64,000 nucleotides of DNA from a virus (Duplodnaviria; Heunggongvirae; Uroviricota; Caudoviricetes; Ackermannviridae): positions 88,254-152,253 of the IMG/VR virus record IMGVR_UViG_2974596396_000001; one strand, given 5' to 3'. Below, piece by piece: positions 22,567 to 28,155 of the stretch. Position numbers and translations under genes: made by a program. Each line of letters opens with the position of its first letter. The first letter of the stretch is position 1. The notes under the pieces are model-generated. The model was not told the origin of the DNA, searched no databases, and was given only the letters and a program-made list of their open reading frames with translations.

Positions 22567-23439
22567 ATGACAACTCGTACTGGCATCAAACTCACTCCTG
22601 AAGTCCTGAAGTCACATATCGCTGAGGTGATTTACGAAGACCGCGAAGTCGGCGGTCACCGGGCTATCACTTGTCATTTCAAGATGGATAACGGCTTCGT
22701 CGTTCACGGCACCAAGCCCAGCACATCCATAGACCCGGCCAACTTCGATGAAGCCCTGGGCAAAGAGATTTCCTACAATAACACCTTCGACCAGCTGTGG
22801 CAGCTGGAGGCGTACCGGGCGCTTGTTGAACAAGATCTGTTGGCCAAAGCCACGGAAACGGCAGAGATCCGGATCGATCAATACGCTGTTGAACGTAGCG
22901 CCCTCTGTCCGGCCTATCACCTCGGCTTCAATGTGATGATTCAGGACGTGATGTTCAGAGCGGAAAATGGCGAGCGCTTCTTGGCGTCTTTCGTTTGTGG
23001 GCCGGATGACATGGAACTTGTTGTTGACTCTCACAACGCCAAATCTCGTAAGGCTGTTAGTGATTTCCTGCGCGCCAACTCCAAACTCGATCTCACTTAT
23101 TCGCCATTGGTTCTGCGCATCGCCAAGATTTGTCATGAAGCCAACCGCGCATACTGCAAGTCTGTTGGTGACGACTCTCAACTGCCTTGGGAACAATCTC
23201 CGGCCTGGCAGCGTGAGAGCGCTTGCAAAGGTGTTATCTTCCATCTCACTGGTGATCGTAAGCCCAGCGAATCGCATGAGAGCTGGATGGCGGAGAAGGA
23301 GGCTGAGGGATGGGTGTATGGCCCAGTCAAAGACCCTCAGACCAAGCAACACCCTTGCATGGTTCCGTATGGAGAACTCCCGGTACAACAACGCTCCAAA
23401 GATTATATTTTCAAATCCATTGTAGACTCCTTTAAATAA
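22567..23439 (+). CDS. RyR-domain protein
   Basis: The C-terminal WMAEKEAEGWVYGPVKDPQTKQHPCMVPYGELPVQQRSKD matches the RyR (ryanodine-receptor) domain consensus. Confidence 0.6.
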   Translation: MTTRTGIKLTPEVLKSHIAEVIYEDREVGGHRAITCHFKMDNGFVVHGTKPSTSIDPANFDEALGKEISYNNTFDQLWQLEAYRALVEQDLLAKATETAEIRIDQYAVERSALCPAYHLGFNVMIQDVMFRAENGERFLASFVCGPDDMELVVDSHNAKSRKAVSDFLRANSKLDLTYSPLVLRIAKICHEANRAYCKSVGDDSQLPWEQSPAWQRESACKGVIFHLTGDRKPSESHESWMAEKEAEGWVYGPVKDPQTKQHPCMVPYGELPVQQRSKDYIFKSIVDSFK

Positions 23440-23588: not shown

Positions 23589-23765
23589 ATGACCGACAAC
23601 AAATTAAAACGCGCCGGACTTGATTGTCTTGACAATTCATTCCGTCCCAGTGATGTTCTGGTCGCCCAAATGGAAAACAACCGGGATTTCATTGAAACTA
23701 TGCTGGAGAACGCCGACGCGAACTCCAAACACTCCAAAGCCCAAAAAGGTCAAAACGATGATTGA
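23589..23765 (+). CDS. Hypothetical small protein
   Basis: Inner ATG of ORF 23562. Ends with an ATGA overlap into the vWA gene. Confidence 0.3.
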   Translation: MTDNKLKRAGLDCLDNSFRPSDVLVAQMENNRDFIETMLENADANSKHSKAQKGQNDD

Positions 23766-25974
23766 ATCATTAACATTTAAGAATGCGGTTGCGACTGTCG
23801 CGCCGTCTAACCATGTAATCGTTGTGGATATCTCCGGTTCCATGTATCGTTCACTTCCAGAAGTTCGTAAGCATCTGAAGGAGAACCTGCCTTCCCTGGT
23901 GAAACCGGAAGATACTGTGAGCATCCTTTACTTTTCATCTCGCGGTGATTTCGGAACGGTATTTGCCGGACGTCAGATTAACAGTGCAACTGATCTCAGT
24001 GAGATCAATAATCTAATTGACCGTTTCCTGAAGCCTTCTGGTTGTACTGGTTTTGTTGAGCCACTGAAACTGGCTGCGGAAACTGCCATTAGCCTGAATA
24101 AACCTGGTTATGTTAACAACCTGGCATTCATGACCGACGGATATGACAACTGCTGGCGTTCTAATGAAATCCTGGATGCCGCTGAAGTACTGCCCAAAGC
24201 GTTTGATAACATTACCTTCATCGAATACGGTTGGTATTGTAATCGCGAACTGCTGGGGCTAATGGCAGAACGTTCTGGTGCGACCCACGTATTCGCCGAA
24301 GGACAGAATGAATATCAGACCGAATTGGAAAACGTGCTGAAAACTTCTTCACCGAAAGTTGTAGTCGATGTTCCTCTGGTTTATACCCATGCCATTTATG
24401 TTGAAAATGGCGTGGCGACTGTTTTAGCTGTGCATCCTGATGAAGAGCACCCTATTGGCCACGTCAGCATCCCTGAAAGCGTTTCTCAGCTGTGGGTTGT
24501 AAACCCCAACATGATCGACCAGCTGGATAATCTGGCAGACAACCAGGCGGCATACGTGCTGGCATTCTATGGCGTGTACACCATGGACGCCGATTTGGTC
24601 TGGGCCGCGCTGAAGAAGACGGGTGACGTCCGCTTCATCAAACAGTACAGCAACTGTTTCACCAAGCAGGATTACTCCAACATCAAAGTTGATCTGACTC
24701 AGGCTATCGTAGACGAATCTCTGCGAGGAGTTGATGGCATCGATTATAATATGGTTCCGGCTGAAGACGCCACCACCATTGTTGATGTTCTGACGTATCT
24801 GGCTGAAGCAGATGTCTCTATTGTCACCAAGCATCCGCTATTCTCTTACAAGAGCATTGGGCGCGGTACTGTACAGAAAGTTGATGACACCGAAGACAAG
24901 TTGGCCGAAGAGATTGCGAATGCGACTTCTAAAGAAGAGCGTAAAGCCCTGGCGCTCAAACTGGCCGAGCACGAAGATTGGACCCCCGAATTCAATCCAG
25001 CGGATGATAAAGGGATTGTCCCGATCAGCAATTTGGTCTACAATTCAGAACGTCCTAACATCAGTGTGCAGACAGTTCAACACGGAACGGTTGTTGTGCC
25101 TGAGTTTGTACAGAAGAAATATGAACTTCCTGAAGAACTGGGAACCTGGCGTTATCGCAATTATACCATTGTCAAGGATGGCATCATCAACCTGAAAACA
25201 ATGCCTATCACTGCAGATTCTCCGATTGTTCGGGCTAAGGTGGCACAGGATTTGACTGCCATGGGCGTTCATGTGTTTGGTGGGCCGGAAGTCTTCATTG
25301 TAAATCTGGAAAGTGTCCCAATGGTTAACCGCGCCATGACAAAGAATATCAGTGCTGCTGAATTCTTTGCAGACAATGTGCGCCGTGAAGCATTGAAGGC
25401 AAAACAGAAAGTTCTGAAATTCTACCGTGATGAACTGGTTGGTAAAGGCAACGCTACTGGTCTGGCTTCAAAATATGGCAAAGAAGCGGCTGATTTCCTG
25501 TCAGCAAACGGCATTCGCGACTATGGATTTTCACCGAAGACTTCTTCTGTAGAATCAACCGATGTCTATATGAGTCGTGAATTGAATGTGAAAATCAAAG
25601 GCGCATCTTCACTGCCGAGCATCGCGTCTGTTATCAAAAAACAGACGGACGGTAAAAAACTCAATGTCGCTGATCAGCTGATCGCTAATGCCCTGGCAGA
25701 ATACAATGCGTTTGTTAAATCGCCGATGATCACCAGCGTACCGGAAGAGACTCAGAAAAAGCTGATCGAAAGTTGGATCGGTGACGCAGCAAAAGCGGCC
25801 ATTAACGAAGTCCGCTCTCTGAACAAAACGCTGTCCAAGGTAGTTTATGGGATTGTTGCAGGCCATGGTTGGTTTACCGACCTGGATTTGGAAGAATCCA
25901 CTATGGATGTGGAAGTTGATGGGGTGAAATACACCGTCACTGCCGAACTGGCTGAAAAAGAAGTCAAAATCTAA
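23758..25974 (+). CDS. von Willebrand factor A (vWA/MIDAS) domain protein, 738 aa
   Basis: MIDAS VVVDISGSMYRS and AFMTDGYDN. Start placed at ATG 23758 (ORF 23620 extends spuriously upstream). Confidence 0.65.
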   Translation: MIESLTFKNAVATVAPSNHVIVVDISGSMYRSLPEVRKHLKENLPSLVKPEDTVSILYFSSRGDFGTVFAGRQINSATDLSEINNLIDRFLKPSGCTGFVEPLKLAAETAISLNKPGYVNNLAFMTDGYDNCWRSNEILDAAEVLPKAFDNITFIEYGWYCNRELLGLMAERSGATHVFAEGQNEYQTELENVLKTSSPKVVVDVPLVYTHAIYVENGVATVLAVHPDEEHPIGHVSIPESVSQLWVVNPNMIDQLDNLADNQAAYVLAFYGVYTMDADLVWAALKKTGDVRFIKQYSNCFTKQDYSNIKVDLTQAIVDESLRGVDGIDYNMVPAEDATTIVDVLTYLAEADVSIVTKHPLFSYKSIGRGTVQKVDDTEDKLAEEIANATSKEERKALALKLAEHEDWTPEFNPADDKGIVPISNLVYNSERPNISVQTVQHGTVVVPEFVQKKYELPEELGTWRYRNYTIVKDGIINLKTMPITADSPIVRAKVAQDLTAMGVHVFGGPEVFIVNLESVPMVNRAMTKNISAAEFFADNVRREALKAKQKVLKFYRDELVGKGNATGLASKYGKEAADFLSANGIRDYGFSPKTSSVESTDVYMSRELNVKIKGASSLPSIASVIKKQTDGKKLNVADQLIANALAEYNAFVKSPMITSVPEETQKKLIESWIGDAAKAAINEVRSLNKTLSKVVYGIVAGHGWFTDLDLEESTMDVEVDGVKYTVTAELAEKEVKI

Positions 25975-25982
25975 TTTCAACT

Positions 25983-26007
25983 GGCGGGGAAACCCGCCTT
26001 CATTTTG
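25983..26007 (+). terminator. Rho-independent terminator
   Basis: GGCGGG-GAAA-CCCGCC followed by TTCATTTT. Confidence 0.7.
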
Positions 26008-26017
26008 AGATATGCTT

Positions 26018-26329
26018 ATGTCAAACAAACCAACTTATGTTGAAGTGATGCGTGTTCTGGCTCAGTACGCTTGTGACAACCTGAACATGGAAACTTGGCG
26101 CAATGGGGATCACAAGGACAAGTTTGATAACATTGATGATAATATCGATGCTTTAGCGCCGTTACGGGTTAAGAATGATCTCGGCGGTGACGATCTTGAC
26201 ATGATTGAGCTGGTCATGGAAATCGAAGAAGAGTACGATGTAGAAATTAGTGACGAGTGGGTGGGTAAACATGGAGATGATCCTACCCTCGGAGAGTTAG
26301 CTGAACTCGTCGTTGTTCTCTGCAAATAA
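26018..26329 (+). CDS. Acyl carrier protein homologue with the active-site Ser replaced by Asp
   Basis: DLGGDDLDMIELVMEIEEEYDVEISDE aligns with E. coli AcpP [27 protein letters not shown]. The phosphopantetheine Ser corresponds to Asp59 (codon GAT, 26192-26194). Confidence 0.7.
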   Translation: MSNKPTYVEVMRVLAQYACDNLNMETWRNGDHKDKFDNIDDNIDALAPLRVKNDLGGDDLDMIELVMEIEEEYDVEISDEWVGKHGDDPTLGELAELVVVLCK

Positions 26330-26338
26330 TAATCCATG

Positions 26339-26370
26339 AAATCCCCAATAATTATTGGGGATTTTTACTT
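26339..26370 (+). terminator. Rho-independent terminator
   Basis: AAATCCCCAATAATTATTGGGGATTT followed by TTT. Confidence 0.8.
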
Positions 26371-26378
26371 TCAAAGGC

Positions 26379-26407
26379 TTTACTTGAATAAACATTTGCC
26401 GTATTAT
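26379..26407 (+). promoter_or_regulatory. Host sigma70-type early promoter
   Basis: -35 TTTACT, 17-nt spacer, -10 TATTAT. Confidence 0.5.
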
Positions 26408-26460
26408 TCAATAACTGGCTAACGTGGGGTTGGTCAGAAATTGAATAGGTTGATTATAAC

Positions 26461-26700
26461 ATGTCAAACAAGAAAGTAGAAACGGCAGTAGAAATAGACC
26501 GCAATTGGGGCTTGCTCCGCGCTAAAGGATTCCGCCGTGTGTACATGACTAAGGAAGTCTATGCTTCGCGCCGAGATGTTATCATTAGCAAGAAAGGAAA
26601 AGTATGGGTTGCTGAAGAGGTTGATGCCGAAACGGGTGTCGTCGGTAAGGTTAAAGCCAAGGCGAATATTCTTTTCGCTCTTCTGAAGCATATCAATTAA
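26461..26700 (+). CDS. Early hypothetical basic protein
   Basis: First ORF downstream of the promoter at 26379. Confidence 0.5.
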   Translation: MSNKKVETAVEIDRNWGLLRAKGFRRVYMTKEVYASRRDVIISKKGKVWVAEEVDAETGVVGKVKAKANILFALLKHIN

Positions 26701-27705: not shown

Positions 27706-28155
27706 ATGTTCCTTACATCCTTTATTGACTGGATGAATATCATAAATGGCCTGAGGATCCCTGTTGGGAACCTCGGGCTTTCTCGTTCTTCTATGCCGCA
27801 AATCGATGCCGACAAACAAGAAGATTTTCACAAATATCTTGAAGACAACGGCGTGTCTATAGATGCTGCGCAAGTGCCTATCAAAATGCTTCGTCTTACC
27901 CAGAACGAAATCAATAAAATGAAGGTCTGGAAGATTATGAAGCAGATCAGAAATAAGAAGCCCATGGGTCGAGTTTGGGTATCTTCTGACAATTACGTTG
28001 TTGACGGTTCTCACCGATTTGTCGCTGCGTTGAACATGGACGGCAAACAGCGCATGAAGGTCTACAAAGTTGATTTGCCAGCGATGGAATTTGTTAAACT
28101 CGCTAAACAGTTTCAGGGTGTGCGATACAGAACGGTCAGCGATACCCGTTTCTGA
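27706..28155 (+). CDS. ParB-like nuclease domain (ParB/Srx fold) protein
   Basis: VVDGSHRFVAAL resembles the ParB N-terminal DGxHR motif. Confidence 0.45.
   Translation: MFLTSFIDWMNIINGLRIPVGNLGLSRSSMPQIDADKQEDFHKYLEDNGVSIDAAQVPIKMLRLTQNEINKMKVWKIMKQIRNKKPMGRVWVSSDNYVVDGSHRFVAALNMDGKQRMKVYKVDLPAMEFVKLAKQFQGVRYRTVSDTRF

Follow-up and report, generated by a model that had tools for sequence, protein, structure and literature searches.

Acyl carrier proteins (ACPs) are highly connected: they serve fatty-acid, phospholipid, lipid A, biotin and lipoate synthesis, and they bind SpoT, MukB and IscS. The acceptor of the phosphopantetheine that AcpS and Sfp transfer is a serine hydroxyl, and ACPs dock their client enzymes with the acidic face of helix II. 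Few soluble proteins are as abundant as host AcpP, overproduction of ACP arrests growth, apo-ACP inhibits the glycerol-3-phosphate acyltransferase PlsB more strongly than holo-ACP does, and SpoT binds holo-ACP and not apo-ACP (PMC3896788). Apo- and holo-AcpP stimulate the ATPase of MukB to the same extent (PMC8602292). In the PlsB and MukB cases an ACP without its prosthetic group is active through binding alone, as we propose below for a phage protein; the ACP in those cases, however, is the host's own AcpP in a transiently unmodified state, whereas the phage protein is hard-wired, virus-encoded and negatively charged at the attachment site. Phages phiRSL1, BCSR5, phiXF1, Bajun, R6L and 10AMN also encode small PP-binding proteins that are annotated 'acyl carrier protein'; these keep the sequence DSLD and so are modifiable in principle, whereas the Ackermannviridae family described here never keeps it. 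A further parallel is with pseudoenzymes and dead-domain regulators, in which a catalytic or cofactor residue has been lost and the fold and binding surface are under selection. The literature that we found on Ser-less or phage ACPs consists of genome-annotation mentions, with no account of the missing serine or of a function, and we found no paper on pseudoenzyme-like loss in free-standing viral ACPs.

The DNA analyzed here (the window) is a 64,000-nucleotide stretch, positions 88,254 to 152,253 of IMG/VR record IMGVR_UViG_2974596396_000001. It is from a Kuttervirus (Ackermannviridae); over the 2 kb tested it is 100% identical to Salmonella phage Se-J, and many other relatives are 95-99% identical to it. 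The ACP-like gene lies in a T4-like replication and repair region with genes for the clamp loader, RegA, DenV, helicase and RNase H (Table 1 gives the features of the locus). RefSeq starts the gene at the ATG at 26012 (MLMSNK...), 6 nt before the ATG at 26018 that is used here; the latter has the better Shine-Dalgarno spacing (8 nt after the GAG at 26007-26009) and is the start common to other genera. Within Kuttervirus, the residue that separates the two Met codons is variable and can be L, N or D. Searches by tblastn found the gene in 271 phage records, which include phages of Salmonella, Klebsiella, Escherichia, Dickeya, Shigella, Enterobacter and Serratia, as compared to 25 phage records when E. 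coli AcpP was the query, and in many of the records (well over a hundred phage genomes) it is already labeled 'acyl carrier protein'. Its homologue in phage Sajous1 appears in a virion-proteomics table with a single peptide, which is too weak to give it the status of a structural protein. Two other genes of the region can be described as follows: positions 22567-23439 (+ strand) encode a 290-aa protein with an N4 Gp49 / Sf6 gene 66 family domain and a C-terminal RyR domain (Pfam E-values 1.5e-11 and 1.9e-10), and positions 27706-28155 (+ strand) encode a 149-aa protein that matches the middle of the 740-residue PHROG profile phrog_2859 and has a weak ParB-like match, so that it may be a free-standing ParB/Srx-like domain.

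Table 1. Features of the ACP-like locus, in window coordinates.
Feature	Position	Strand	Basis
VWA-domain protein, 738 aa; VWA domain N-terminal, MIDAS DxSxS intact	23758..25974	+	Pfam VWA; PHROG 2426
Upstream terminator-like hairpin, GGCGGG-GAAA-CCCGCC with T-rich tail, between VWA stop and ACP-like start	25983..26006	+	Terminator scan
ACP-fold protein coding sequence, 103 aa	26018..26329 (stop included)	+	ORF list, Pfam, PHROG, AF2, Foldseek, dN/dS
Residues 54-80: DLGGD-D-LD motif, helix II and the next loop	26177..26257	+	Conservation in 45 sequences; predicted helix 59-73
Asp59 codon (GAT) at the phosphopantetheine-Ser position	26192..26194	+	Sequence, phmmer alignment, family conservation
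Downstream terminator-like hairpin, 12-bp stem, 4-nt loop, T tract	26338..26371	+	-15.3 kcal/mol, z = -3.0
Sigma-70-like promoter match TTTACT-17-TATTAT for the next gene (26461-26700)	26379..26407	+	Promoter scan

Is the product of this gene truly related to ACPs? It passes the gathering threshold of the Pfam PP-binding family (PF00550; 30.8 bits against a threshold of 20.8, E = 3.6e-7) over residues 54-98, and all of its residues 1-103 align with positions 1-108 of PHROG 4154, the 'acyl carrier protein' profile of the Ackermannviridae type (E = 1.6e-56). The NCBIfam ACP models (TIGR00517 / NF002148-51) match it over residues 50-81 only and all score well under their cut-offs, the best being 40.3 against 71 bits and 37.3 against 70.45 bits. 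A phmmer search of the PDB aligned DLGGDDLDMIELVMEIEEEYDVEISDE with a 27-residue segment of B. subtilis ACP (E = 5e-8), with Asp59 placed on the modified Ser, and matched E. coli AcpP at 1.5e-5. The AF2 model built from 28 homologues (pLDDT 87.4, pTM 0.82) is a four-helix bundle of the ACP type in which helices I, II, III and IV span residues 7-21, 59-73, 79-84 and 91-101 and the insertion at residues 22-48 is modeled with less confidence; helix II begins exactly at residue 59. The top 50 Foldseek matches of this model in the PDB are all ACPs (target TM 0.7-0.77). The initial annotation, which had been made from the sequence alone, called the product a phage-encoded ACP whose prosthetic-group Ser is replaced by Asp59, and the profile search, the predicted structure and the alignment bear out both parts of that claim. 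By its sequence and modeled fold, then, the 103-aa product is a member of the PP-binding superfamily, and it has the fold, size class, acidity, DLGxD-x-LDxVE motif and acidic helix II surface of E. coli AcpP and B. subtilis AcpA. It differs from these two proteins in the Asp or Glu at the Ser site, in an N-terminal part that is 23 residues longer and has the insertion between helices I and II, and in a longer WxGxxxDDPT loop before helix IV. In the phmmer comparison it is no closer to the AcpP of its enterobacterial hosts than to the Bacillus ACP; a recent capture of the gene from the host is unsupported, as the best solved relatives are Bacillus ACPs and not enterobacterial AcpP.

The codon for residue 59 is two substitutions away from any Ser codon. 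At this site 33 of 45 distinct family sequences (cultured, IMG/VR and metagenomic relatives, down to 39% identity) have Glu and the other 12 have Asp, and a neighbor-joining tree of the family contains at least four interchanges between the two residues. Within Kuttervirus dN/dS is 0.03-0.09. The restriction of the site to Asp or Glu and these dN/dS values argue that the acidic residue is a selected feature, and sequencing error, which the initial annotation had also discounted, and a pseudogene are both rejected. The loss of the defining catalytic residue is what might be seen in a decaying, functionless relic of a captured ACP gene, but the low dN/dS, the maintenance of the gene across genera (271 phage records), the invariant residues (below), the confidently predicted fold and the retention of Asp or Glu through at least four switches all speak against such a relic. 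We give that idea almost no credence, as the selection data already refute it. A very divergent homologue is present in Erwinia phage phiEa2809 (KP037007.1; L482:4810-5109), where an unannotated 99-aa ORF occupies a 440-nt 'gap' between NW77_086 and NW77_085. This ORF follows the VWA gene of that phage, is related to the family with an hhalign probability of 95%, and has Glu at the Ser position.

The protein might in principle still be a carrier that is loaded at a non-canonical residue or through non-canonical chemistry, since it passes the PP-binding threshold and has a complete ACP fold. No position holds an invariant Ser among the 45 family sequences, however, and around the N-terminus of helix II neither Ser nor Thr nor Cys is conserved; the sole invariant or nearly invariant hydroxyl is that of T90, which caps helix IV. 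The NCBIfam ACP models, moreover, all leave the protein far under their cut-offs. The genome of Se-J (NC_049497) has no PPTase, FAS, PKS, NRPS, Dlt, ketosynthase, acyltransferase or adenylating enzyme, and no other transferase or enzyme that handles acyl or aminoacyl groups, annotated among its 215 features (an annotation check only, in a genome with many 'hypothetical' genes), and the ACP-like gene is not linked in the genome to fab genes or acpS. With Asp or Glu at the site, no conserved alternative and no annotated cognate enzymes, we take a carrier role to be impossible, and we consider loading by some unusual route very improbable. The canonical AcpS or Sfp reaction would find no acceptor, there being no Ser at the site and no invariant Ser elsewhere, which agrees with the original statement that the protein could not be converted to a holo form. 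It lacks the defining Ser of a functional ACP and should not, in the functional sense, be called an 'acyl carrier protein'.

If the protein does not carry acyl groups, what has been conserved? Residues D58, L60, I63, E64, M67, E70 and P89 are invariant in the 45 sequences, D61, I77 and D79 are at least 98% conserved, and W81, D87 and T90 are also nearly invariant. We take D58, L60, D61, I63, E64, M67, E70, I77 and D79 to be the equivalents of AcpP D35, L37, D38, V40, E41, M44, E47, I54 and D56, respectively, the positions at which AcpP contacts its partners in AcpP-enzyme co-structures; the docking residues are thus conserved across the 45 sequences. The fold, the helix II face and the negative charge at the former attachment point have all been kept by selection, and this argues that binding is the function of the protein. 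Outside the part shared with other ACPs, the family has its own N-terminal extension with conserved residues Y7, V10, Y17, N21 and N23.

We propose that the protein is an unmodifiable look-alike of ACP that occupies client proteins of the host ACP by binding alone, and we put the chances that this is correct at about even. According to this proposal, a four-helix ACP fold whose attachment Ser has been permanently lost in favor of Asp or Glu would be incapable of acyl shuttling and would act purely by protein-protein binding through its conserved acidic helix II, and during host takeover one or more host ACP-binding proteins would be occupied. From the conserved helix II we infer an inert mimic that would titrate ACP partners. 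The candidate targets would be proteins that see the unmodified or the phosphate-bearing Ser36 region. Because AcpP is extremely abundant, the most sensible targets are those for which the phage protein would not compete with the pool of holo- and acyl-ACP, among them AcpS and PlsB. AcpS is a candidate in that its natural substrate is the scarce apo form, although a carboxylate at residue 59 may clash with the acidic AcpS active site; PlsB is a candidate in that apo-ACP is its stronger inhibitor. MukB and other clients for which the cofactor of ACP is dispensable could also be bound. The negative charge that is always present at the Ser position may mimic the phosphodiester of holo-ACP, and such a phosphomimetic role would fit the D/E-only pattern; SpoT, with its preference for the holo form, is a place where a phosphate-mimicking carboxylate could matter.

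The transcription of the gene bears on this proposal. The upstream hairpin (-15.2 kcal/mol, z = -2.9) is kept across the clade with compensatory changes in its stem, and the downstream hairpin is kept in most genera, also with compensatory stem changes, and is absent from Taipeivirus-like loci. The initial annotation had described the gene as monocistronic and bracketed by two terminators. The bracketing holds, as both hairpins fold at about -15 kcal/mol with z near -3 and are conserved across the clade as just described, but the monocistronic part does not: the promoter scan found no promoter-like site in the 19 nt from the upstream hairpin to the ATG at 26018, and a promoter of its own that would make the gene monocistronic is rejected. 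Expression of the ACP-like gene probably depends on read-through from the upstream VWA gene. The promoter match that follows the downstream hairpin delimits the transcription unit to which the ACP-like gene belongs. A GG(G)TTTACTT box after the downstream hairpin (26366-26407) is kept in L005, L009, L012, L017, L021 and L348-L350 and is present even in the Taipeivirus-like loci that have no hairpin; it resembles a -35 region that would belong to the next unit's promoter. A simple competitor of the abundant AcpP would need very high expression or affinity, yet this gene lies behind a terminator-like hairpin without its own promoter, and this counts against the look-alike proposal.

Comparison of the neighboring genes raises a second difficulty. 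The ACP-like gene is the fastest-diverging gene of its block, with 39-65% identity to the window between genera, compared to 73-99% for the VWA gene and mostly 71-92% for the next, 79-aa gene. The hosts' AcpP is nearly the same across these genera, and divergence that is faster (39-65%) than that of the neighbors (71-99%) counts against the look-alike proposal, as does the fact that the closest solved relatives are B. subtilis ACPs and not host AcpP. Salmonella phage maane (L012, IMGVR_UViG_2974516482_000001) is mosaic with respect to window positions 23758-26700: its VWA gene is 99%, its ACP-like gene 65% and its next gene 91% identical, which suggests that ACP-like alleles are swapped as cassettes bounded by the two conserved hairpins. 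The conserved N-terminal extension, in turn, suggests an additional or different partner.

The hairpin, the likeness to Bacillus ACPs, the fast divergence and the N-terminal part keep alive the alternative that the protein is not a host mimic and is instead a dedicated subunit or adaptor of another phage protein. One version of this alternative has the MIDAS of the VWA protein ligating the exposed carboxylate of Asp/Glu59, much as the MIDAS of integrin I-domains takes an Asp or Glu as ligand. The VWA gene is directly upstream, at a distance of about 40 nt, in every member of the ACP-like family examined, including the 39-55%-identical members and phiEa2809; the pair is probably transcribed together, the VWA protein has a conserved MIDAS motif (DxSxS), the Ser site is limited to D or E in the Ackermannviridae family, and the N-terminal extension is both conserved and family-specific. 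Against this, the whole block is syntenic, so that adjacency is not independent evidence, and the VWA family is far wider than the ACP-like one (502 phage records across Ackermannviridae, RB43-like Straboviridae, Pseudomonas phage pf16 and Rhizobium phages), with no adjacent ACP-like gene in RB43 and pf16. In addition, the D/E ACP-like genes of other phages (below) have no VWA neighbor, nor any common neighbor, and the 99% VWA and 65% ACP-like identities of maane indicate no tight co-evolution. The AF2 model of the VWA protein (pLDDT 86) gave generic matches only, to VWA plus beta-sandwich structures (an ArnB/Sec23-24-like core) over about the first 380 residues; its C-terminal half has no fold match, and the protein has no sequence relative in the PDB. 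The VWA protein as an obligate partner is rejected by its occurrence without the ACP-like gene in RB43 and pf16 and by the generic fold matches, and we think an adaptor role in general unlikely.

Are Ser-less ACPs confined to the Ackermannviridae? A profile search of 1.84 billion representative proteins returned as nearest non-identical relatives P0028-P0033, P0036 and P0038, all of which have D or E at the site; the four of their contigs that were examined (P0028, P0029, P0031 and P0038) are all in Ackermannviridae-like synteny. Farther relatives are short ACP-like proteins of 82-98 aa with D or E. Four of these (P0041, P0043, P0048 and P0077) have no N-terminal extension, share a DD-containing loop before helix IV and are encoded on contigs of tightly packed small ORFs, mostly without Pfam matches; the gene for P0043 is directly after thyX. 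P0070 is encoded between RNR and Gam, ThyA and DHFR on a 147-kb contig that is clearly phage-like. The D-type metagenomic protein P0077 had no tblastn match in cultured phages. A D-type ACP-like protein from Streptomyces (P0176) was also found. Glu/Asp ACP-like domains that follow signal- or lipoprotein-like peptides, judged by eye, occur in metagenomic proteins P0130, P0172 and P0071 and in viral contig L035, and three such Ser-less domains are present in P0071; these four would be exported Ser-less ACP folds.

A scan of IMG/VR DNA with the degenerate motif D-L-G-x-D-[DE]-L-D-x-[IV]-E gave 72 matches, about 60 of them ACP-like (about 14 of those Ackermannviridae), from several unrelated phage lineages. 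When the Ser site was left free, 67 of the first 80 IMG/VR matches listed had Ser, nine had D/E and four had another residue; that scan had seven matches of the 'other' class overall, and two of them, one with Pro and one with Leu, are real ACP-like proteins. Among the first 120 matches listed from bacterial contigs (one genome per species), 119 had Ser, one had Gly and none had D/E. As the samples contain at most 120 rows, cover AcpP-like motifs only and are not phylogenetically independent, the enrichment of acidic-for-Ser ACP-like proteins in viral contigs over bacterial genomes that these values suggest is indicative only. The matches to the D/E motif include a large family of 71-75-aa proteins with the sequence DDLGAD[D/E]FD in marine viral contigs (L029, L031, L034, L039, L045-L047, L052, L054, L056, L346 and others). 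One member of this family has Pro at the site. Helix II lacks acidic residues in its second half (AIQEATG), and relatives in cultured phages do not exceed 47% identity. Member L054 passes the Pfam threshold, and its gene adjoins genes for a GH108 lysozyme, DnaJ, peptide deformylase and a ClpB-like ATPase. The D/E ACP-like genes of unrelated phages were found to have no neighbor in common, except that two short contigs share one downstream gene. These proteins of uncultured phages (the marine family, P0041, P0043, P0048, P0077 and P0070) are thus like the Ackermannviridae protein in their Asp/Glu site, small size and location in replication, nucleotide or chaperone modules, but they have no N-terminal extension and no VWA neighbor, and the marine family tolerates Pro. 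Ser was likely lost independently at least twice among phage ACP-like proteins. The Pro or Leu at the Ser position in other phage lineages would argue against the look-alike proposal, in that the acidic charge is not universal.

The acidity of the protein (net charge -17, pI 4.1) allows yet another explanation, that the ACP scaffold is simply a compact carrier of negative charge and that the protein is a decoy for nucleic-acid-binding proteins, i.e. a DNA or RNA mimic or an anti-defense protein. Its gene is among early/middle replication and repair genes, the D/E ACP-like genes of other phages are in nucleotide-metabolism or replication modules near RNR, Gam, ThyA or ThyX, and it evolves faster than its neighbors and is seemingly exchanged as a cassette, as genes for host interaction often are. 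Genuine AcpP, however, is just as densely charged (net -15 in 77 aa), conservation falls precisely on the residues with which ACPs dock and not on a new array of charges, and the fold searches show no similarity to any known DNA mimic. As to the DNA-mimic class (Ocr, ArdA, Gam-like), whose surface carboxylates imitate B-DNA phosphate spacing, the fold searches return only ACPs, and the charge of the protein is no higher than that of AcpP. An acidic decoy therefore seems to us quite improbable.

Returning to the ACP look-alike proposal, we can place it in a wider and more tentative one, which we think has somewhat less than an even chance of being right: phages may have evolved, at least twice, hard-wired 'pseudo-carriers' in which the cofactor-bearing Ser has usually become an Asp or Glu that imitates the phosphodiester, and which hijack the host ACP network (AcpS, PlsB, MukBEF, SpoT and others) for takeover or anti-defense. 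Among cultured phages, the Ackermannviridae protein would be the commonest example of this kind. The label 'acyl carrier protein' that it has in so many records implies a metabolic carrier function that is impossible for this protein, and many of the phages in question are in use, or have been put forward, as biocontrol agents against Salmonella, E. coli O157 and Klebsiella. If the look-alike proposal is true, a permanently unmodifiable viral ACP would represent a novel kind of tool for host takeover, and it would also be a natural probe for those ACP interactions that need the protein surface only. The apparent enrichment of such proteins in viruses suggests a broader, undescribed viral strategy.
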